A stretch of DNA of 64,000 nucleotides. It comes from a virus (lineage: Duplodnaviria > Heunggongvirae > Uroviricota > Caudoviricetes). Under the pieces are notes generated by a model. It saw nothing but the letters and a program-made list of their open reading frames with translations, did no database searches and was not told the DNA's origin. The position numbers and the translations under genes are program-made. The stretch lies in IMG/VR virus record IMGVR_UViG_2880378312_000006; one strand, written 5' to 3'. How positions within the stretch are numbered: position 1 is the first letter of the stretch; every line of letters begins with the position of its first letter. This document shows, in pieces, positions 3,612 through 38,033 of this stretch.

Positions 3612-4001
3612 AATAAATCCTTATTACATGTTTATATCCATTAATAATATCAATCCATTGATACTATTAGTGTCACATATCCGATGTGGACAGCTTTAAT
3701 ATATAACTGTTTGAATGCTTGATTGATGTGACTTAGATCTCAAAATTAAGTTGTTAAATTTACCAGTTTATCGCTTGAACACTTAAAATAAATTATAAAT
3801 GTTTCTGTTATTGTTTTTTATAGTTTAAATTATTGTTGGTTGTATAAGCTGATTACATTTTTACTCTAAGTGTTATAAATATTTTATACTGATATTAGTC
3901 TTATTATATATTTTTTTAATGAAAATGAGCATAAAACTAAGACATATAATGCTTGGCAGCTTTATGCTCTTCTGATTGGCTGTATGTTTGATGACAAAAA
4001 A

Positions 4002-4036
4002 TTAGCGCAAGAGGACAAAAAATCACCTTGCGCTAA
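4002..4036. repeat. Perfect 10-bp inverted repeat (ttagcgcaag ... cttgcgctaa) with a 15-nt spacer; copy 1 of a roughly 170-bp diverged repeat
   Basis: Read directly; second copy at 6007-6041 with one arm substitution that keeps T-G (RNA G-U) pairing. Confidence 0.8.
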
Positions 4037-4271
4037 TGCTCTGTCTCAGGTCACTAATCACATCTAACTCATTGATTAATTGTGACTCTAAATGTAGTGT
4101 TTTGTCGCGTTTTGCAGTCTATCATTTAATCAATTGTATAAATAACATAATGATTTTTAATGTGTTTTTGTGATTTTATCCTCCTTCTGACATGGAAGTT
4201 GTTCGTTCAAAAATCTTATTAAATATCAAGTTGTTAAATCTGGTAAGTCATTATTGGTCAAAATAAAATCA

Positions 4272-5210
4272 TTATCCGATTTCAATTTTGTCCCACTCCC
4301 GCCCGCGACTGTCCCTATAATGCGCCGCCATTGAATCAGATTTATGTCCAAGAAGACGTTGTGCAAACTTGTAGCCAATCTGGTTCCGATATAGCCTCGC
4401 GGACAGACTACGTAGTTCATGAAATGTCGGTGGGTCTCCATCAAACGAGATCCCGGATGCATTTCGCGCCTTTGTTAAATACCGTGATACTGTGGCTGGA
4501 GAAAGTGGTTCGTGATAGGTTGATGCGATTATTGTTTCACTGCTGCTGGCCTCCCTGCATTTCTGTAGTGTATCAACCAGTGAGATGTCGAGTGCGTCAA
4601 TGGTTAGAGCCAGCGGAATGGCAATTTTGGCTCCTGTTTTACTCTGTCCAATGTGAAGATGACCATCGTTTATGTCTGACCACTTCATTCTGCACAAATC
4701 GCCCACTCTCTGCCCTGTAACGACAGCTAAATCCATTGACAGCCTCAGCCAGATGGGGAGGTGCTCAGCAGCATGGTAAATAGCGACATACTCATTAGCT
4801 GTCAGCCTTGAGCGCCTTACTTCTGACTTTGCTGCACGGGTTGTTGTTACTGGATTCGTTGCCACATGCCCCTCGGCTATTGCCCCTCGAAAAACGTCAA
4901 CAAGGGTTGACCTGATTACTCTTGCGGAAACCGCTTTACCTTCTGCGACGTAGGTGTTTAGCATTGCTGCCACCTCTTTCGTTGATATGTCAGTGAGCGG
5001 TTTGTCCGGCAATTTTCTTCGAATTGCCCTGATTTTGCTGGCGTAGTCGAGTAATGTTTTCGGCTTGCTCCCCCTCTAGCTGAGGATTGTTTCATATCGA
5101 TCAAGCCACGTATGAAGAGTGATTGAGTCAGTGCCTTTAACCCTGTCCAGCAATGATTCGTGCCCACTTTCGCTGAAAAGCTCAATGTTGGTGTGAATTC
5201 TACGAGCAAT
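4272..5210 (-). pseudogene. int: Lambda-type tyrosine integrase remnant (N-terminus replaced, internal amber stop)
   Basis: 246-aa ORF aligns with lambda Int from about residue 110 to the C-terminus (EGHVATNPV...HELRSLSARLY...GHKSDSMAAHYRD); the upstream frame reads ...TLHTWLDRYETILS-stop-RGSKPK where lambda has ILASRGIKQK; similarity ends near 5210. Confidence 0.8.
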
Positions 5211-20995: not shown

Positions 20996-21634
20996 TTAAA
21001 TATCTTGTTGAATTTTAAAGCATACTCCCAATATGCAAGATAGATCATCCAGCATAATTGAAGGGTAGCGAGGATTCGTGGGGACTAAAAGAATATCCGG
21101 CCCTTCTATCTCCAGTTTGCGAATGACAGGCGTTGTGGTCCCTTTGGGTAAGGCAAGGACAATATTTCCTGGTTGTACGATTCGATCGGGATCAACAAAA
21201 ACTGTTGAACCATTTGGGATGGAAACTCCACCACCAGATGTCGACATACTGTCACTCTCTAGAACAACAGCAAAGGTATTGGCCGGGATTTCTCCGACAA
21301 GCTGCACACAAGAGGTTATTGAGGAATTTTTCATATAATCACTCCAGCTTGCTGCCTGCTGAAGTGATAGTAGCGGAACCGTTTTTATCGGCGGTAAAGA
21401 TAGATCAAGCGAATCACCTGTATTTAACTCTCCTCCATTAAGAAGCCAATTTTCGTTTACTTTCAATATCTTTGCCAGTGAACTTATGTAACGCGAGGAC
21501 GGCGCTCCTCCACCGTTCATCCATTGACTTACGGAGCCTTTTGATGCGCCAGTGGCATTGACAAGGTCTTTGCCTTTCAAGTTTAGCGCATGCATACGTT
21601 GGGTTATGCGTTCAGATATTGTTTGCTTGTTCAT
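20996..21634 (-). CDS. cI: CI-like prophage repressor (XRE-type HTH plus S24 LexA-like peptidase domain), 212 aa
   Basis: N-terminal HTH (QRMHALNLKGKDLVNATGASKGSVSQW) and C-terminal S24 autopeptidase-like region; divergent from the cro-like gene. Confidence 0.85.
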   Translation of the reverse strand: MNKQTISERITQRMHALNLKGKDLVNATGASKGSVSQWMNGGGAPSSRYISSLAKILKVNENWLLNGGELNTGDSLDLSLPPIKTVPLLSLQQAASWSDYMKNSSITSCVQLVGEIPANTFAVVLESDSMSTSGGGVSIPNGSTVFVDPDRIVQPGNIVLALPKGTTTPVIRKLEIEGPDILLVPTNPRYPSIMLDDLSCILGVCFKIQQDI

Positions 21635-26886: not shown

Positions 26887-27005
26887 GAGACCAGGCGGGG
26901 GAGTAATCTCCCGCCACCTCTGATGTGTCAGGCATCCTCAACGCACCCGCGCTTTACCATACTGAAAATGCTGTTTGAATGTTCATCTCTGAAAGAGGAC
27001 TATGA

Positions 27006-27350
27006 ATGAAAAAGGTATTGATTGCAGCACTTATTTCCGGTGTGTCTTTTGGCGCTTTTGCACAGCAGGGTGGTTTCCAGGGGCCAGAAGCAGAGCGTTC
27101 AACAGTAGCGCAGGCAAAAGAACTGAAGGATGATGCATGGGTTATCCTTGAAGGGAGCATCGTTAAAAAAGTGGGTGATGAACGTTATGAGTTTCGTGAC
27201 AATAGCGGGACAATTGTCACGGATATTGATGACAGCGTATGGGCCGGGCAGAATGTTTCTCCGAAAGACAAAGTAAGAATTGAGGGTGAAATTGATAAAG
27301 ACCTGAGCAGTGTTGAAGTTGATGTAAAGGCACTGAAATTATTAAAGTAA
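27006..27350 (+). CDS. YgiW/YdeI (BOF) family periplasmic OB-fold protein, 114 aa, signal peptide
   Basis: Signal peptide then GGFQGP...ILEGSIVKKVGDERYEFRDNSGTIVTDIDDSVW...EGEIDKD, the characteristic BOF pattern. Confidence 0.8.
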   Translation: MKKVLIAALISGVSFGAFAQQGGFQGPEAERSTVAQAKELKDDAWVILEGSIVKKVGDERYEFRDNSGTIVTDIDDSVWAGQNVSPKDKVRIEGEIDKDLSSVEVDVKALKLLK

Positions 27351-27471
27351 CCGCCCCTGCTTGTTAAGCCCGTCTTACTGACGGGTTTTCTGTTTGTACA
27401 TTCCGGCGTATTGCCTTACAATTCGCGCAGTCAGCCTGAACAACTGACACCTGCTGTCACCGGAGAATCCG

Positions 27472-27744
27472 ATGACACAACACATAAAATCCCACAATTC
27501 TGAAGCCGACCCGGAAATTAAGCAGGGGAGGCGTTTTCGTGCGCCTCAGTATGGCTGGTTTCACTATCTGTTCTGTACGATCGATGAGGCAGATATGCTT
27601 CAAGAGGCGTATCTGCGTCGCGGTGTCCGTGTGGAGCGGAGTCTGAACGCTGATCGTCTGACCTGGACCGTTTCTGTATATCTTCCTGTTCGTGCACATC
27701 TGCCACGGACACATGCCTGCTACCGTCAGCGCGTCTGGAGGTAA
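27472..27744 (+). CDS. Hypothetical protein, 90 aa (Rem-position gene)
   Basis: GGAGA RBS; sits where rem lies in Qin (between hokD and ydfU); no sequence-level identification. Confidence 0.3.
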   Translation: MTQHIKSHNSEADPEIKQGRRFRAPQYGWFHYLFCTIDEADMLQEAYLRRGVRVERSLNADRLTWTVSVYLPVRAHLPRTHACYRQRVWR

Positions 27745-28795
27745 TGTGCGGGTATTACTTCGACCTGTTCTGGTTCCGGAACTCGGGCTGGTGGTCCTTA
27801 AGCCCGGTCGTGAATCATTGCCAGTTTTTCATCGCGGCAGGGTGCTGGTGGAGCCGGAACCGAAAAACATGCGGGCGCTGCCATCTGGAGCGGTTCCTGC
27901 TGTTCGCCAGCCGCTGGCGGAAGATAAATCACTGCTGCCATTTTTCAGCGATGAGCGGGTGATTCGTGCAGCTGGCGGCGCTGGTGCACTGTCTGACTGG
28001 TTATTACGTCACGTGAAATCCTGCCAGTGGCCACACGGCGATTATCATCACAGCGAAACCGTTATTCACAGTTACGGTGCTGGCGCAATGGTGTTGTGCT
28101 GGCACTGCGACAACCAGCTGCGCGACCAGACCTCCGAATCACTTGAGCAACTTACTCAACAAAATCTGACAGCCTGGATGATTGACGTCATACGCCATGT
28201 AATGAATGGCACGCAGGAGCGGGAATTATCGCTGGCTGAATTATCCTGGTGGGCAGTCTGCAATCAGGTGGTGGACGCATTACCTGAGGCAGTATCGCGT
28301 CGCTCTCTGGGATTACCGGCGGAAAAAATCCGCTCCGTATACCGTGAAAGCGACATCATACCGGGAGAACAGACCGCCACCAGCATACTGAAGCAGCGCA
28401 CAAAAAATATTGCGCTACCGCCTCACACCCACCAGCAACAGAACCCACCACAGGAAAAGACGGTGGTCAGCATTGCCGTTGATCCGGAGTCTCCGGAATC
28501 CTTCATGAAACGACCTAAACGTCGCCGCTGGGTAAATGAGAAATACACACGCTGGGTAAAGACACAGCCGTGTGCGTGTTGTGGTAAGCCAGCGGACGAT
28601 CCTCATCATCTGATTGGTCATGGTCAGGGCGGAATGGGAACAAAATCCCACGATATTTTCACGCTACCGCTGTGTCGGGAGCATCACAACGAGCTTCATG
28701 CGGATCCGCTGGCGTTCGAAGAAAAGCATGGTTCCCAGGTTGATTTAATTTTTCGTTTTCTTGATCACGCCTTTGCAACCGGCGTGCTCGGGTAA
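27692..28795 (+). CDS. YdfU-like prophage protein (DUF968-type) with C-terminal HNH-like Cys/His motif; start uncertain
   Basis: C-terminal CACCGKPADDPHHLIGHGQGG...LCREHHNELH; position between hokD and rusA/Q mirrors Qin ydfU. Confidence 0.55.
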   Translation: MHICHGHMPATVSASGGNVRVLLRPVLVPELGLVVLKPGRESLPVFHRGRVLVEPEPKNMRALPSGAVPAVRQPLAEDKSLLPFFSDERVIRAAGGAGALSDWLLRHVKSCQWPHGDYHHSETVIHSYGAGAMVLCWHCDNQLRDQTSESLEQLTQQNLTAWMIDVIRHVMNGTQERELSLAELSWWAVCNQVVDALPEAVSRRSLGLPAEKIRSVYRESDIIPGEQTATSILKQRTKNIALPPHTHQQQNPPQEKTVVSIAVDPESPESFMKRPKRRRWVNEKYTRWVKTQPCACCGKPADDPHHLIGHGQGGMGTKSHDIFTLPLCREHHNELHADPLAFEEKHGSQVDLIFRFLDHAFATGVLG

Positions 28796-28807: not shown

Positions 28808-29113
28808 ATGCGTATAGAGTTTGTTTTGCCTTACCCGCCGACGGTGAACACCTACTGGCGACGTCGTGGCAGCACATATTTTGTATCAAAAGCCGGTGAG
28901 CGTTATCGCCGGGATGTGGCACTTATTGTTCGCCAGCAGCGGCTGAAATTAAACCTGTCCGGAAGGCTGGCGATAAAGATTATTGCAGAGCCACCGGATA
29001 AGCGCCGTCGTGACCTGGACAATATCCTGAAAGCACCACTGGATGCGCTGACGCATGCCGGACTTCTCATAGACGACGAGCAGTTTGATGAAATCAATAT
29101 TGTGCGCGGCTAG
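28808..29113 (+). CDS. rusA: RusA-family Holliday junction resolvase, 101 aa
   Basis: MRIEFVLPYPPTVNTYW...RRRDLDNILKAPLDALTHAGLLIDD matches RusA motifs. Confidence 0.8.
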   Translation: MRIEFVLPYPPTVNTYWRRRGSTYFVSKAGERYRRDVALIVRQQRLKLNLSGRLAIKIIAEPPDKRRRDLDNILKAPLDALTHAGLLIDDEQFDEINIVRG

Positions 29114-29163
29114 CTCGTTTCTGGTGGGCGGCTGGGCGTGAAGATTTACAAAATTGAAAGTGA

Positions 29164-29730
29164 GTGAGCATAAATATGATATACCCGGAAATTACAGGCA
29201 AAAGCGGTGAGCATTTACGCCTGAAAACGCTGGAAAGTGTCTGGATCCAGGGGAAACTGCGTATGTGGGGGCGTTGGTCGTATATTGGCGACGGTAAGAC
29301 GGGAAATATGTTCAACCAATTACTGACCTCTAAAAAGCTGACAAAAACGGCAATTAACGAGGCGCTCCGGAGGATGAAAAAAGCGGGTCTGGACAAACCT
29401 GAACTTGAGGCTTTTTTGCGGGATATGATCAACGGCAATCAAAAAAGCTGGCTGGCACATTGTACCGATTCAGAGGCGTTAATAATCGATAGGGTTATTG
29501 GTGAAGTACTGGCAGGTTATCCCGGGCTGCTCAATGTTCTGAGTCAGCGTTATGTGGGGCGGGGGATGACTAAGCGCAAAATGGCTGAATTGCTGAATGA
29601 TGCACATCCGGAATGGAGTTTAAGAACCTGTGAAAGACGCATTGAGCATTGGCTAAAGGTGGCAGAATTTATTTTGTACAAACCAATGGTTATGGCTTTT
29701 GGTATAGAGAAAAAAGTTATTGCTTTTTGA
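29164..29730 (+). CDS. Q: Late antiterminator Q-like protein
   Basis: Gene immediately upstream of a short promoter-terminator unit and the tRNA/late-gene block; family assignment by position and recollection. Confidence 0.5.
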   Translation: MSINMIYPEITGKSGEHLRLKTLESVWIQGKLRMWGRWSYIGDGKTGNMFNQLLTSKKLTKTAINEALRRMKKAGLDKPELEAFLRDMINGNQKSWLAHCTDSEALIIDRVIGEVLAGYPGLLNVLSQRYVGRGMTKRKMAELLNDAHPEWSLRTCERRIEHWLKVAEFILYKPMVMAFGIEKKVIAF

Positions 29731-29808
29731 CGTAAAAACTGCTTCAATTCCGGTAAGCTTCGCAAAGCTGTACCGCGAGGCGAATAGCAGACATGGACAT
29801 TTGAAAGA

Positions 29809-29831
29809 GCCCGCTTTTTGCGGGTTTTTTT
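29809..29831 (+). terminator. Intrinsic terminator 79 nt downstream of Q; candidate tR' of the late promoter pR'
   Basis: gcccgc-ttttt-gcggg hairpin followed by seven T. Confidence 0.5.
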
Positions 29832-29954
29832 ATGACTGAAAAACGGCACGGGGCGTTAAACGCGCTGGTGGTTGCTAATACCGGTCTTTCAACTTGCTGG
29901 CTTTTTCGACAAGAGTTATTGGTATGTCACGTTAACCGGAAAAGGGAAAAAGAC

Positions 29955-30152
29955 ATGCTAAAACAGCAGGATATGACAGAAACCGCCAGAGTGGTGTTTA
30001 ATGAATTAAGCGTTACCGAACCGGCGACAGTCGGGGAGATTGCGCAGAATACTTACCTTTCACGCGAACGCTGCCAGTTAATACTGACCCAGCTGGTTAT
30101 GGCGGGTCTGGCAGACTATCAGTGCGGTTGTTACAGACGCATTCAGTCCTGA
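29955..30152 (+). CDS. Small hypothetical protein with winged-helix-like region (about 65 aa)
   Basis: ORF 29832-30152; the annotated ATG sits right after the terminator, so the internal ATG at 29955 with a purine-rich RBS is preferred. Confidence 0.3.
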   Translation: MLKQQDMTETARVVFNELSVTEPATVGEIAQNTYLSRERCQLILTQLVMAGLADYQCGCYRRIQS

Positions 30153-30287
30153 AGGCTTTTTATTTGTGGTAAATGGGCGGCTGGTGGGGGGGGCGGCACC
30201 TGTCAGTCCTTTGCTTATGTGTTGATGATAATTTACCTTTTGGGGCTATAATTGAGCTAACCAATTGCTAATGAAAGTAAAATTATA

Positions 30288-31001
30288 ATGGCTGTTGTCT
30301 GTTCAGTTATCATGGTTTGCTCCCCAATTAATATTTTTCTTGAAAAGGATACGTTGTCACTTAAGCCAGGCTCAGTCGTTCTGGCCACCAAATGCATCAG
30401 GGAGCTTTTCCTTATGCATTATGGCAAAGTTAAAATTGTCGATATAAGCGAATCCGTCGTAAGTCAATATCTGGAAAGTCAGCATAAGCTGACGAGGACT
30501 CGTCTGACTGACATTCCGCTTTACCTGTTGCTGGAACCCAACAATCCTGCGTTGGCTGCGGCTTTAATTACCAGCCAGGGATTTTCCGGAGAGGTCACGG
30601 ATATGTTTCTTATGATGGCCTGCCTGTCTCTGTTTGAAACAGATGAACGGATGTCATTGTTTTTAAGTGGATGTTTATCCAGCATAAGTGCCAAAGTCAG
30701 GGCGATAATTCAGACAGATATATCAGCAAGCTGGACGCTTGGTGCGATTGCTCTACAGTTGCATATGAGTGAGAGTTTGTTAAAGACAAAACTGAAAAAT
30801 GAAGGGGGCATGTTCAGTCGCTTGTTGCTGGAAGAGCGGATGCGTGTTGCTGTAAATATGTTATGTTCCCGGTATGGATATGGACAGGCTGTAGCAGAAA
30901 AATGTGGTTATTCAAGCCGGTCCTACTTTATTTCTGTATTTCACCGCTATTATGGCTTCCCGCCAGACAGATATGTATCCAGGCAAGGGCTTGATTATTG
31001 A
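30288..31001 (+). CDS. AraC/XylS-family transcriptional regulator, 237 aa
   Basis: C-terminal AraC-type HTH (...CGYSSRSYFISVFHRYYGFPPDRY); lies in the Q-dependent late region upstream of the tRNAs. Confidence 0.75.
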   Translation: MAVVCSVIMVCSPINIFLEKDTLSLKPGSVVLATKCIRELFLMHYGKVKIVDISESVVSQYLESQHKLTRTRLTDIPLYLLLEPNNPALAAALITSQGFSGEVTDMFLMMACLSLFETDERMSLFLSGCLSSISAKVRAIIQTDISASWTLGAIALQLHMSESLLKTKLKNEGGMFSRLLLEERMRVAVNMLCSRYGYGQAVAEKCGYSSRSYFISVFHRYYGFPPDRYVSRQGLDY

Positions 31002-31029
31002 TTTTCATCTGATTATTATTTTTTGGCTC

Positions 31030-31105
31030 GGCCCTTTAGCTCAGTGGTGAGAGCGAGCGACTCATAATCGCCAGGTCGCTGGTTCAAATCCAGCAAGGGC
31101 CACCA
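31030..31105 (+). tRNA. ileZ: tRNA with CAU anticodon, ileX/ileZ-like (tRNA-Ile lysidine type, or Met), 76 nt
   Basis: Cloverleaf folded by hand: 7-bp acceptor stem ggccctt/aagggcc, anticodon loop cuCAUaa, T-loop ggttcaaatcc, 3' CCA; near-identical to E. coli ileX from recollection. Confidence 0.85.
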
Positions 31106-31205
31106 TCACAAACCGCCATTAGCTTATCAGGAAGAGCAGACGACACCATAACAGGGTTGTTGGTGCGGGGCCGGGTCCCCGATGGCGGTCCATTATCGGT
31201 ATTCT

Positions 31206-31282
31206 GCGTTGTTAGCTCAGCCGGACAGAGCAATTGCCTTCTAAGCAATCGGTCAGTGGTTCGACTCCACTACAACGCGCCA
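31206..31282 (+). tRNA. argO: tRNA-Arg (anticodon UCU), 77 nt
   Basis: 7-bp acceptor stem gcgttgt/acaacgc, anticodon stem attgc/gcaat with loop cuUCUaa, T-arm agtgg-ttcgact-ccact, CCA end. Confidence 0.85.
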
Positions 31283-31451
31283 CACTTATTTTCCAGGCTC
31301 GCTTCGGCGGGCCTTTTTTGTATCTGCGCCACGCCCGGCGCATACCAACCACAGAGCCTTTCGGGGGTGAGCTTACGGAGTGGTCAGTGTGACTTTCTCT
31401 GTGGGCAGATCGCTCCCGGGCGTTGGCTCACCCACCCAAAGGAACGTCACG

Positions 31452-31883
31452 ATGTTTGGAATCTTCAAAAAGAAAACCCGCAGAGCGGCAACGGAAATTA
31501 AAAAGTTTGAAAAACGCGATCTGGCACAGGTGGTGATTAACGCCGCATACCTGGTGGCCTGTGCAGATGGTGAATGTGAGGCATCCGAGAAAGCGAAGAT
31601 CGAACAGGTACTGCGTAATCAGCCTGCGCTGTCCGCGTTTACGTCAGAAATTAATGCGATTAGCGCAACCATTATCGGTCAGCTGGATACGAACTTTAAA
31701 ACTGGTCGTCGTGCGGCGTTACGTGAGATTGAGGATGTGAAACACGATACGCGTGAAGCGGAAGATGTGCTGGATGTGGCGGTGGCCATTGCGGAGGCAG
31801 ACGGCGAAATTGAGCCGGAAGAGCGCAAGGTGCTGGAAGAGATTGCCGGTGTTCTGGGTCTTCGTCTGGAGAATCACCTGTGA
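31452..31883 (+). CDS. TerB-family (tellurite-resistance TerB-like) protein, 143 aa, in the position stx occupies in Stx phages
   Basis: Architecture parallels TerB: MFGIFKKK start, VACADGECEASEKAKI and VAIAEADGEIEPEERKVLEEIAGVLGL repeats of the ADG...E motif. Confidence 0.6.
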   Translation: MFGIFKKKTRRAATEIKKFEKRDLAQVVINAAYLVACADGECEASEKAKIEQVLRNQPALSAFTSEINAISATIIGQLDTNFKTGRRAALREIEDVKHDTREAEDVLDVAVAIAEADGEIEPEERKVLEEIAGVLGLRLENHL

Positions 31884-32047
31884 CGGTAAAACTGCGCCTG
31901 GCTGTGGCTGCACTCCTGCTGTTTCTGGTGGTGATGGTGGATTTCACCAGCAGAATCATGTCGGTGCTGGCGGATGGGGTGCTGGTCTGCGGCATTGTGG
32001 TATTGCTGTGGCCGGTGATAAAAAGAAACAGCCTGCATAATGCTTGA
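31880..32047 (+). CDS. Possible small two-TM membrane peptide (55 aa) coupled to the TerB-like gene
   Basis: GTG overlapping the upstream stop (cTGTGA); product VTVKLRLAVAALLLFLVVMVDF...VLVCGIVVLLWPVIKR; below the ORF-track size cutoff. Confidence 0.3.
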   Translation: MTVKLRLAVAALLLFLVVMVDFTSRIMSVLADGVLVCGIVVLLWPVIKRNSLHNA

Positions 32048-32360
32048 TTTTTTTGTTTGCTGTTTATTAAAAACACTTCTGCATGGTGAATCCCCCTGTG
32101 CGGAGGGGCGATCAGCAACCAGGTATATGGGATAATCGCGGATTCAGGTGCTGATACTGAATTCACCGGGAGGCACCCGGCACCATGCTTTGCCACAAAA
32201 GTGTTGTTTCTGTTTTTCTCAAACTATCATCGTTATCCCTTTATTTCCGGCTGCGCATGGCGCGGCTTTTTTTTACGACCAGCCACTGGCAGATGGTCAT
32301 CCTGTGATTTGATTCCGGTTCCGGCTTTTTAACTCTGTTCCTGTACACGGGAGAAATTCG

Positions 32361-34211
32361 ATGTCGATTAAACATTATGATGTTGTCAGGGCGGCGTCGC
32401 CGTCAGACCTTGCGGAAAAGCTGACACACAAACTGAAAGAGGGCTGGCAGCCGTTTGGTAGTCCGGTGGCCATAACCCCTTATACCCTGATGCAGGCGAT
32501 TACAGCAGAAGGTGATGTGGTGGTCAGTGGTGCAACTGAGCCGGATTGGTACTACGTCATCGTACTGGCCGGGCAGTCCAATGCCATGGCTTACGGTGAA
32601 GGGCTTCCGCTGCCGGATTCATACGATGCTCCGGATCCGCGCATTAAACAGCTGGCGCGCCGCAGTACAGTGACGCCGGGTGGGGCTGCCTGCAGATATA
32701 ACGATATTATTCCGGCCGACCACTGCCTGCATGATGTGCAGGATATGAGTACGCTGAATCATCCGAAGGCAGACCTGAGCAAAGGGCAGTACGGCTGTGT
32801 CGGCCAGGGGTTACATATTGCCAAAAAACTGCTCCCGTATATCCCGAATAACGCGGGGATCCTGCTGGTACCATGCTGTCGTGGTGGTTCGGCATTTACC
32901 CAGGGCGCGGAGGGGATATTCAGCGAGTCCACGGGGGCCAGCCAGGATTCGGCGCGCTGGGGTGTGGGTAAACCGTTATATCAGGACCTGATTGCGCGCA
33001 CCAAAGCTGCATTACAGAAGAACCCGAAAAATGTGTTGCTGGCGGTGTGCTGGATGCAGGGAGAGTTTGACATGAGCGCCGCCACCCACGCACAGCAACC
33101 TGCGCTGTTTACAGCCATGCTGACACAGTTTCGTGCTGACCTCTCCGTGTTTAACGCGCAGTGCCATGGTGGCAGTGCTGCAGATGTGCCGTGGATTTGT
33201 GGTGACACGACGTATTACTGGAAAAATACATACGCTACCCAGTACGACACCGTGTACGGCGGGTATAAAAACAGGGAGAGTGAGGGCGTTTATTTTGTGC
33301 CCTTCATGACAGACGGTAACGGCGTCAATACCGCCACTAACGCGCCGGCAGAAGATCCGGATATTCCGGCATCAGGATATTACGGTGCGGCATCGAGAAC
33401 GAATGGAAACCAGGTATCATCAAACCGCCCGACACATTTCAGTTCATGGGCGCGCAGGAGCATTATTCCGGATCGTCTGGCAACCGCTATTCTGAACGCA
33501 GCCGGGCGCACCTCAGCCTTCATCAGTGGTAAGGCACCGGAAATCAAACCCTCGCCCGGCGGCAACACGCCATCGGGTCCGTCTGCAGATACGTCCGTTC
33601 GCACAATCTCCCTGCTGCCGGCAGCCGGAGAGGCTGCTGCGCAGGGCTGGAGCATTAAGGATGGCGGAATTCAGTTGTCAGATGGTGTATTTAAGATCAC
33701 CAGGCAGAGCAATAAAACCTGGTCCCTGACGCATCCGGTGGATGACGCAATTACCCTGCTGACACAGGGCGGCAGACTGACCTGTAAGTTCCGCCTGTCA
33801 GGCGCACTGACCAACAATCAGTTCGGGCTGGGGATTTATCTGTATACGGACGCTCCCGTTCCTGATGGTGTGGCGATGACGGGTACCGGTAATCCGTTCC
33901 TGATGTCGTACTTCACTCAGACCACTGACGGCAGAGTGAATCTGATGCATCACAGGAAAGCCGGAAACACGAAGCTGGGGGAGTTCGGCGATTACGGTAA
34001 CGACTGGCAGACGCTGGAGCTGGTGTTCACCGCCGGCAGTGCCACGGTTACTCCGAAACTGAATGGAGTGGCTGGCCCGGCATTCCAGGTTATAAAAGAC
34101 AGTCTGACACTGGGACTGAATGCGCTGACGCTGACGGATGTTACAAAAAATGCAGCGTATGGCGTTGAGATAGAAAGTCTGATGCTGGAGATAAATGCAC
34201 CGGCAGCATAA
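32361..34211 (+). CDS. nanS-p: Prophage sialate O-acetylesterase NanS-p-like protein, 616 aa
   Basis: N-terminal DUF1737-like region MSIKHYDVVRAASPSDLAEKL and an SGNH/SASA esterase motif (LAGQSNAMAYGEG); position between the tRNA/stx locus and the holin as in Stx phages. Confidence 0.75.
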   Translation: MSIKHYDVVRAASPSDLAEKLTHKLKEGWQPFGSPVAITPYTLMQAITAEGDVVVSGATEPDWYYVIVLAGQSNAMAYGEGLPLPDSYDAPDPRIKQLARRSTVTPGGAACRYNDIIPADHCLHDVQDMSTLNHPKADLSKGQYGCVGQGLHIAKKLLPYIPNNAGILLVPCCRGGSAFTQGAEGIFSESTGASQDSARWGVGKPLYQDLIARTKAALQKNPKNVLLAVCWMQGEFDMSAATHAQQPALFTAMLTQFRADLSVFNAQCHGGSAADVPWICGDTTYYWKNTYATQYDTVYGGYKNRESEGVYFVPFMTDGNGVNTATNAPAEDPDIPASGYYGAASRTNGNQVSSNRPTHFSSWARRSIIPDRLATAILNAAGRTSAFISGKAPEIKPSPGGNTPSGPSADTSVRTISLLPAAGEAAAQGWSIKDGGIQLSDGVFKITRQSNKTWSLTHPVDDAITLLTQGGRLTCKFRLSGALTNNQFGLGIYLYTDAPVPDGVAMTGTGNPFLMSYFTQTTDGRVNLMHHRKAGNTKLGEFGDYGNDWQTLELVFTAGSATVTPKLNGVAGPAFQVIKDSLTLGLNALTLTDVTKNAAYGVEIESLMLEINAPAA

Positions 34212-37718: not shown

Positions 37719-38033
37719 ATGCTACATGATCACCTGGCAGAATGTCTGGAGAAAAAAGGACTGTACCGGAGAGCAGCTGAACGATGGGCAAAAGTGATGG
37801 TACAGCTAAGTGATGACCAGAAAAGAAAAGTGGCGGCACAGAAACGAGCAGAGTGTTTGCGTAAGGCGCGCCGGACTCCGGTTTCACCGGTGAACCTGAC
37901 CGAAATAAAACAAGCGGTCAACAGACTACATTCTGAGTTGGGAATGGGATTTGAAGAGCGGCGGGTATTCCGACGATATAAAGGGACAGGAGAACAGAAT
38001 ACGTCCGGAAACGCGCGGTCAAAAAAATGCTAA
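37719..38033 (+). CDS. pch: PerC-family transcriptional regulator (Pch-like), 104 aa
   Basis: Size and N-terminal motif (LAECLEKKGLYRRAAERWAKVM) resemble PerC/Pch; located between the lysis cassette and cos. Confidence 0.65.
   Translation: MLHDHLAECLEKKGLYRRAAERWAKVMVQLSDDQKRKVAAQKRAECLRKARRTPVSPVNLTEIKQAVNRLHSELGMGFEERRVFRRYKGTGEQNTSGNARSKKC

Follow-up and report, generated by a model that had tools for sequence, protein, structure and literature searches.

Is a regulatory gene that lies behind the Q gene of a lambdoid prophage switched on with the late genes at induction, or is it transcribed in the lysogen from a promoter of its own? Lambdoid phages are known from the textbooks for carrying cargo in the interval from Q to the lysis genes. 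The virus record IMGVR_UViG_2880378312_000006 (Caudoviricetes), of which a whole stretch of 64,000 nucleotides (nt) was analysed and is called the window here, holds a gene for a 237-amino-acid (aa) AraC/XylS-family regulator in that position. The first-pass annotation of the interval 29731–31001 had placed this gene in a Q-dependent late transcription unit, induced with the lytic cycle, and had guessed that it might be one of the AraC-like regulators known from prophages of enterohaemorrhagic Escherichia coli (EHEC). The guess was right because the protein (RefSeq WP_000301797.1) is identical to Z2104 of strain EDL933 (1905274–1905987, prophage CP-933O), and z2104 (OI-57) is named PsrB in two reviews (PMC10877973; PMC8565820). 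The gene is psrB, an already characterised EHEC prophage regulator, and the product names of Z2101–Z2104 agree with the gene order in the window. The assignment to a Q-dependent late unit stood as far as strand and position go; its other part, that expression is essentially Q-dependent, did not, given a promoter-like element within the cargo and transcription in uninduced cells. We propose, at a rough probability of 0.8, that psrB is self-contained cargo that brings its own promoter and is probably also read through under Q.

All 64 kb are 100% identical to E. coli O157:H7 chromosomes (strain 113, NZ_CP028680.1, 2558549–2622548). The order on the + strand is Q gene, hairpin with a run of seven T's, 65-aa open reading frame (ORF), psrB, two tRNA genes, terB, esterase, holin and lysozyme. 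The features on which the argument depends are the following.

29176–29730, +: Q-type late antiterminator gene (EDL933 Z2102), from Pfam, PHROG and PDB matches
29720–29748, +: candidate pR' late promoter, from alignment across phages with DUF1133-type Q genes
29758–29786, +: conserved leader box GCTTCGCAAAGCTGTACCGCGAGGCGAA, from conservation in other phages
29808–29831, +: tR'-like intrinsic terminator, from sequence reading and folding z score
29955–30152, +: 65-aa ORF with a weak TrmB-like winged helix (EDL933 Z2103), annotated coding sequence, PHROG 331
30225–30252, +: promoter-like element for psrB, from a sigma-70-like match with an invariant TATAAT
30288–31001, +: psrB (EDL933 Z2104), 237-aa AraC/XylS-family regulator, from Pfam and the identical protein WP_000301797.1
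31030–31105, +: tRNA with anticodon CAT, annotated tRNA-Ile (ileZ type), from ARAGORN, Rfam (72.5 bits) and RefSeq
31206–31282, +: tRNA-Arg (TCT), argO type, from ARAGORN and Rfam (67.3 bits)
31295–31320, +: intrinsic terminator closing the psrB–tRNA unit, from the scanner (8-bp stem, six G-C pairs, T-run)

Transcription of psrB

Published strand-specific RNA-seq covers uninduced EDL933 under 11 conditions (PMC4048457, Tables S2 and S4). Z2104 stood over background in essentially all of them (10–11), as seen from the reads per kilobase per million (RPKM) of psrB and three genes around it, one value per condition.

Z2104 (psrB): 26, 37, 1, 21, 36, 5, 4, 14, 14, 18, 7
Z2102 (Q): 18, 2, 0, 10, 5, 0, 0, 2, 2, 4, 0
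Z2101 (RusA): 13, 1, 0, 3, 0, 0, 0, 0, 0, 3, 0
Z2105 (next late gene): 27, 0, 0, 2, 0, 0, 0, 4, 0, 25, 0

Z2104 was transcribed in conditions where Z2102, Z2105 and Z2106 gave 0–5 RPKM. Thus psrB is transcribed with Q and the late genes off, and in these data its expression is independent of the neighbouring late genes. The claim that psrB expression is tied to lytic induction was therefore not borne out. Moreover, the silence of Z2105 where Z2104 is expressed fits termination at 31295–31320.

A candidate source of this transcription lies at 30225–30252, where ATGATA and TATAAT are separated by 16 nt, agree with the consensus at 10 of 12 positions and end 35 nt upstream of the psrB ATG. This is the best sigma-70-like match within 29000–32500, an interval in which the total number of such matches equals the shuffle expectation. 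Its TATAAT (30247–30252) is invariant among 38 distinct sequence variants. Upstream of the 65-aa ORF (29857–29954), neither the scanner nor inspection gave a convincing sigma-70 match. A run of eight G's (30186–30193), about 55 nt upstream of the –10, varies between about six and nine among near-identical loci and is replaced by GGGTGTTAGG in other variants; the variation in its length may be sequencing noise or slippage. The first-pass annotation had named a promoter of psrB's own, with silence during induction, as evidence that would speak against it, and the predicted element and the uninduced transcription supply the first half of this.

Several points weigh against a promoter at this site and against the picture drawn from it. 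The site has a poor –35 hexamer, and 13 nt between the –35 and the –10 are deleted in two variants. Few RNA-seq reads were counted, and some of them may derive from the second psr copy, whose sequence is about 90% identical. The pattern of Z2103 resembles that of Z2104, so some transcription could begin upstream of the 65-aa ORF. The promoter is a predicted element, with a start estimated at about 30259, and the functional statements about PsrB come from two reviews and the paper on AppY.

The alternative that survives best is that psrB is essentially late: it would be silent in the lysogen by a stop at tR', come on only via Q at induction and reprogram the host before lysis. The gene does share the strand of the late genes and stands behind Q, pR' and tR' and ahead of the holin, lysozyme and structural genes; this position is what supports its membership in the late unit. 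From tR' to psrB there is no terminator-proof barrier, and in an Stx2k phage stx2 is directly preceded by a close psrB homologue. We nevertheless consider expression only at induction improbable. It fits poorly with the transcription of Z2104 in 10–11 uninduced conditions with near-zero values for Q, RusA and the late genes farther downstream, and with an invariant TATAAT located within the cargo segment itself. According to the reviews, deletion of psrA, the other psr gene, alters secretion both in ordinary culture and in the colonisation of sheep, which argues for expression without lysis, and a regulator made minutes before lysis would be of little benefit to the lysogen. Related O157 prophages also speak against it, as Sp6, Sp9 and Sp10 of strain Sakai excise spontaneously and are not induced by mitomycin C (PMC2669165). 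The late region of Sp10 differs from that of the window because in Sp10 the Q gene is followed directly by the tRNAs, without an AraC gene. In the window, a CI-like ORF of 212 aa on the – strand (20996–21634) has an HTH_3 match, which is below the Pfam cut-off, and a Peptidase_S24 domain; RefSeq annotates only its last 112 aa, as a 'LexA family protein'. Synthesis of the full-length CI-like repressor bears on inducibility by the SOS response.

We hypothesize that its own promoter (–10 TATAAT, 30247–30252) drives the self-contained cargo gene in the lysogen, from a start at about 30259, as conservation and RNA-seq suggest, and that the transcript probably extends through both tRNAs to the terminator at 31295–31320. 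In the presence of Q, by its known mechanism, RNA polymerase from pR' would become terminator-resistant, pass tR' and also transcribe psrB. This read-through would be like that of stx2, which occupies the same slot in Stx phages and depends on Q there. A burst coupled to the lytic cycle is thus a possible second mode of expression; the gene can be explained without it, and its main documented role is a different one. A fuller version, which we put forward only tentatively and regard as doubtful as a whole, has two modes, low own-promoter expression during lysogeny and, in an induced subpopulation, a burst driven by Q; in addition, a gut fatty acid bound in a Rns/ToxT-like N-terminal pocket might set the activity of PsrB. 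If the two modes were real, cells in the lytic cycle, or cells receiving Q from a co-resident Stx phage, would gain acid resistance and lose the type III secretion system (T3SS) during toxin release. With a psr cassette upstream of stx2, a single transcript would then link host reprogramming to the production of toxin.

The Q gene and the predicted leader behind it

The Q ORF is open from a GTG at 29164, and its annotated start is 29176. Its product matches Pfam DUF1133 (3.7e-105), Phage_antitermQ (5.9e-8; 33.1 bits against a 26-bit cut-off) and the PHROG 'anti-termination protein Q-like' (5.3e-81), and it matches phage 21 Q weakly but significantly (PDB 6p18; E=4.8e-4 over residues 80–181). 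By these matches, the gene upstream of psrB encodes a Q-type antiterminator homologue of the DUF1133 family that is distant from phage 21 Q. In E. coli and Klebsiella phages, DUF1133 homologues annotated as Q directly precede cargo, which includes tRNAs, a pertussis-like toxin and TciA, and then a holin or lysin; a Providencia phage has an unannotated DUF1133 homologue in the same position.

The candidate pR' overlaps the Q stop codon, with a –35 TTGCTT (29720–29725), a 17-nt spacer and a –10 TTCAAT (29743–29748). It matches the consensus weakly and was not listed by the promoter scanner. The case for it comes from aligning five phages or prophages with DUF1133-type Q genes (E. coli, Klebsiella, Providencia and Rac-SA53) over 110–150 nt around the Q stop codon. 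Their common layout is a –35/–10 pair over the Q stop, a leader box and a terminator 50–110 nt farther on. An equivalent hairpin with a T-run follows Q at that distance in four of the five loci, and the equivalent in Rac-SA53 is weak. The E. coli phage vB_EcoS-683R6 shares the leader box GCTTCGCAAAGCTGTACCGCGAGGCGAA, and the Providencia phage PSTCR8lys shares it in part. The comparison supports a pR'–leader–tR' unit that is conserved among DUF1133-type Q genes, in agreement with the candidate unit of the first-pass annotation.

The box is possibly a pause or Q-loading element. The predicted leader of about 75 nt (29757–29830) could be such a site or else a short phage small RNA (sRNA), presumably like StxS. 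Its Rfam match to isrK is weak (19.8 bits, E 0.85), and membership in the isrK family was rejected against a gathering score of 50. Within 29731–31001, the Rfam scan gave nothing over threshold except the tRNAs. Farther downstream, at 32052–32224, the sRNA family STnc100 is strongly matched (104.7 bits; gathering score 47) in the interval that separates a DUF3927 gene from the SASA esterase gene, and a terminator follows at 32249–32267.

The hairpin and T7 run that had been noted 79 nt after the Q-like gene are found there, with a stem (29808–29814 and 29820–29826) that begins 78–79 nt past the Q stop codon and a T7 run at 29825–29831. The stem of 7 base pairs (bp; five G-C pairs, one G-U and one A-U) closes a TTTTT loop, the core being CCCGC-TTTTT-GCGGG. 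A 91-nt stretch with this hairpin folds at –34.1 kcal/mol (z = –4.2), and none of 200 shuffles folds as well. The consensus terminator scanner failed to list it; we think that this is due to an upstream A-tract pairing with the T-run.

The PsrB protein and the segment that carries it

PsrB has the roughly 100-aa C-terminal domain with two helix-turn-helix motifs that marks the AraC/XylS family, with matches over residues 155–230 to HTH_AraC (2.9e-13, 50 bits; cut-off 26.6) and HTH_18 (2.4e-9, 37.8 bits; cut-off 33.6). The top NCBIfam matches are YdeO (2.1e-30, residues 1–229) and GadX (9e-25, residues 107–232). Assignment as a YdeO equivalog (NF007407) was rejected at 106.1 bits against a cut-off of 348, which leaves a homologue only, and so was assignment as a GadX equivalog (NF007432), at 87.3 bits against 500 and over residues 107–232 only. 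PsrB belongs to a separate phage family, PHROG 1450. Its AlphaFold model has a mean predicted local distance difference test score (pLDDT) of 75.7. The DNA-binding domain is modelled confidently and resembles GadX: the C-terminal domain superimposes on GadX 3mkl with a root-mean-square deviation (rmsd) of 1.2–1.5 Å, a template modelling (TM) score of 0.89–0.91 and 42% identity. The N-domain is of moderate confidence (pLDDT 50–78). A Foldseek search with the full-length model returned the expected AraC-class matches only, among them Rns, CsvR and ToxT (E about 1e-9 to 1e-10). PsrB is reported to bind the gadE and hdeA promoters and to raise glutamate-dependent acid resistance and survival through the mouse stomach; in trans, it represses type III secretion of the LEE (locus of enterocyte effacement) indirectly, via GadE and YhiF (PMC10877973; PMC8565820). 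It would thus be a prophage-borne AraC/XylS-family activator of the YdeO/GadX/AppY-like group.

The segment that holds psrB is exchangeable. A sibling prophage of EDL933 (paa/adfO), the second one in OI-57, shares the Q gene, the 65-aa ORF and the tRNAs with the psrB prophage and carries a 352-aa DNA methyltransferase in the psrB slot (locus L093, 12953–14125; EDL933 1857953–1859125). Homology to it reaches 30224 and resumes at 31028, with sharp breakpoints and flanks that are 83% identical. The swappable segment therefore begins exactly at the promoter-like element, and it spans 803 bp (30225–31027). The G+C (GC) content of psrB is 43.8% against 50.1% for the window, as expected of a moron, and the replacement of 30225–31027 between conserved phage genes is likewise typical of one. 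Directly after psrB there is only a weak 5-bp hairpin (30980–30993), and the first strong terminator is that at 31295–31320. The gene seems to be a moron, a cargo of lysogenic conversion that measures about 0.8 kb and occupies a recurrent lambdoid slot.

A larger cassette of about 1.5 kb, from ~29820/29857 to ~31285–31330, recurs in most of 80 IMG/VR loci, with its edges just after the tR' terminator and just after the tRNA terminator; in many loci the right edge is at about 31319–31330. The Q genes upstream of it belong to four unrelated families (DUF1133, PF06530, PF03589 and PF06323), and other cargo genes sometimes intervene between Q and the cassette. In the Stx2k phage phiSTEC1575, a complete deposited genome, the cassette with a psrB homologue of 91.6% identity lies directly upstream of stx2AB. 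In another locus (L081), the ORF at the stx2-equivalent position has the length of Stx2A, 319 aa. One IMG/VR contig (L051) has two tandem psr genes (2082–2795 and 4001–4714) that lie 1.2 kb apart.

The constant company of the tRNAs raises the idea that PsrB mainly serves the phage, by activating the tRNAs or late or cargo promoters or by tuning induction, and that its effects on gadE and hdeA are a by-product. The psr genes are linked to ileZ/argO-type tRNAs in 82 of 82 loci, psrB ending 28 nt upstream of the first tRNA, and psrB is rich in the rare codons expected for these tRNAs (ATA for 4 of 14 Ile, AGA and AGG for 5 of 13 Arg). A regulator of the Rac prophage controls phage and host operons, as the title of PMC11879457 says. 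We judge this idea quite unlikely, since the reported direct targets are host promoters, there is no known phage-side target, and the sibling prophage retains the tRNAs with a methyltransferase instead of psr, so the tRNAs need no Psr. That psrB is a decaying, functionless remnant of a cryptic prophage can be dismissed. In favour of a remnant, the lineage is partly defective elsewhere (integrase and RecE truncated in EDL933 and FDAARGOS_293), and 10 of 82 loci have a broken copy of the adjacent 65-aa ORF. Against it, the psr ORF is intact in all 82 with a ratio of nonsynonymous to synonymous polymorphism (pN/pS) of 0.2–0.45, 722 of 5426 complete E. coli genomes have psr-type genes (median two copies), Z2104 is transcribed and overexpression phenotypes are published. 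The conservation data effectively refute the pseudogene that the first-pass annotation had named as a possible objection.

The remaining features belong to the surroundings of the self-contained cargo gene. The AraC/XylS gene is, as had been described, the first substantial gene after the hairpin, followed by the tRNAs; the 65-aa ORF between had gone unmentioned. This ORF matches PHROG 331 (3.9e-37) and, under the cut-off, Pfam TrmB (0.0021), and it was found in 82 of 82 loci. For the first tRNA, ARAGORN says Met(CAT) and RefSeq tRNA-Ile, and just before it stands a promoter-like TTGATT-17-TATTAT (30991–31019). The lambdoid prophage extends from ~14.8 kb to 62.6 kb, from an integrase end to three NleG-type effector genes, abutting a truncated ydfJ. 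The left 14 kb of the window are the effector end of another prophage (nleA, nleG and espM1). A gene for a PerC-family (Pch-like) regulator follows the lysis genes of the psrB prophage (37719–38033), and the NleG-type genes lie at its right end (60181–62181). The prophage thus appears to combine a candidate T3SS activator (Pch-like), a T3SS repressor (Psr) and effectors, a combination that a review has pointed out for psr prophages. EDL933 Z2099, a small 'hypothetical' gene directly upstream of the DUF968 gene and beside a YgiW/YdeI-like stress-protein gene and hok, reached 64–1156 RPKM in 11 of 11 conditions, far over its neighbours. Z2098–Z2099 are placed provisionally at ~27000–27750 of the window, and Z2099 is possibly an sRNA or a further cargo gene with strong expression.

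Knowledge of psrB and its biology dates from 2011–2015, and this is no new kind of system. PsrB-type regulators connect prophages to the GAD acid-resistance and T3SS circuits of EHEC, and this link affects survival of stomach passage and colonisation. The details added here are the exact bounds of the cargo (30225–31027) and the methyltransferase in the same slot of a sibling prophage, the occurrence of the psr cassette behind four Q families and, in places, immediately before stx2, and the predicted conserved pR'–leader–tR' unit of DUF1133-type Q genes. They leave the overall picture unchanged and sharpen the question of own promoter, Q read-through or both.

Comparison with known systems

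PsrB of EDL933 (CP-933O/OI-57) is the same protein, with the same flanks (RusA, DUF1133 Q, 65-aa ORF, AraC gene, tRNA-Ile, tRNA-Arg, TerB). The prophage of the window differs from EDL933 CP-933O in its left arm, which is truncated in EDL933, whereas integrase, excisionase and exonuclease are intact here. Its left neighbour also differs, being here the effector end of the nleA prophage. PsrA takes the same GadE/YhiF route to T3SS repression and is reported to be 90% identical to PsrB; it is assigned to z1789 in OI-50 (CP-933N) (PMC10877973; PMC8565820) and is another copy than the gene of the window. The CP-933N/OI-50 region of EDL933, including the stretch between Q and terB, gave no psr homologue by tblastn, and Z1789 is a 'putative envelope protein' in the EDL933 gene-product table. 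Because O157 genomes carry two psr copies and the resequenced CP-933N none, psrA lies elsewhere.

PatE (Z0321, CP-933H/OI-8) is, like PsrB, a prophage-borne AraC-like activator of gadE and hdeAB. In the comparison with PatE- and Psr-type regulators, in which the gene of the window proved identical to PsrB, PsrB and PatE aligned from end to end with 37% identity, the conserved N-terminus (MA..CSVI) included. PatE lies in a degraded prophage remnant beside an insertion sequence, whereas PsrB occupies the slot between Q and the lysis genes. With regard to the gadE activators YdeO, GadX and AppY of K-12, PsrB is related to YdeO and GadX but far under their equivalog cut-offs; AppY is prophage-borne like PsrB and directly activates gadE, as the AppY paper states. 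With Rns, CsvR and ToxT, PsrB shares the predicted two-domain fold, with a sequence match over residues 110–230 (~5e-16), but the identity is 16–21%, the overall rmsd is high and the N-domain has a pLDDT of 50–78. The model gave no evidence of a fatty-acid pocket, its N-domain confidence being too modest to argue one.

Among lambdoid morons, the stx1 and stx2 genes in the slot between Q and S and bor and lom of lambda resemble psrB in being cargo of low GC content between late landmarks, in a variable slot. Like late-region morons, psrB combines a promoter-like element of its own with a position readable from pR'. It differs from them in having no terminator of its own before the tRNAs, and from stx, bor and lom in that the cargo is a transcription factor and not a toxin or a surface protein. 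In the lambdoid phage 1H12 and its relatives, an AraC-type gene that is 40% identical to PsrB likewise lies between Q and the holin gene.

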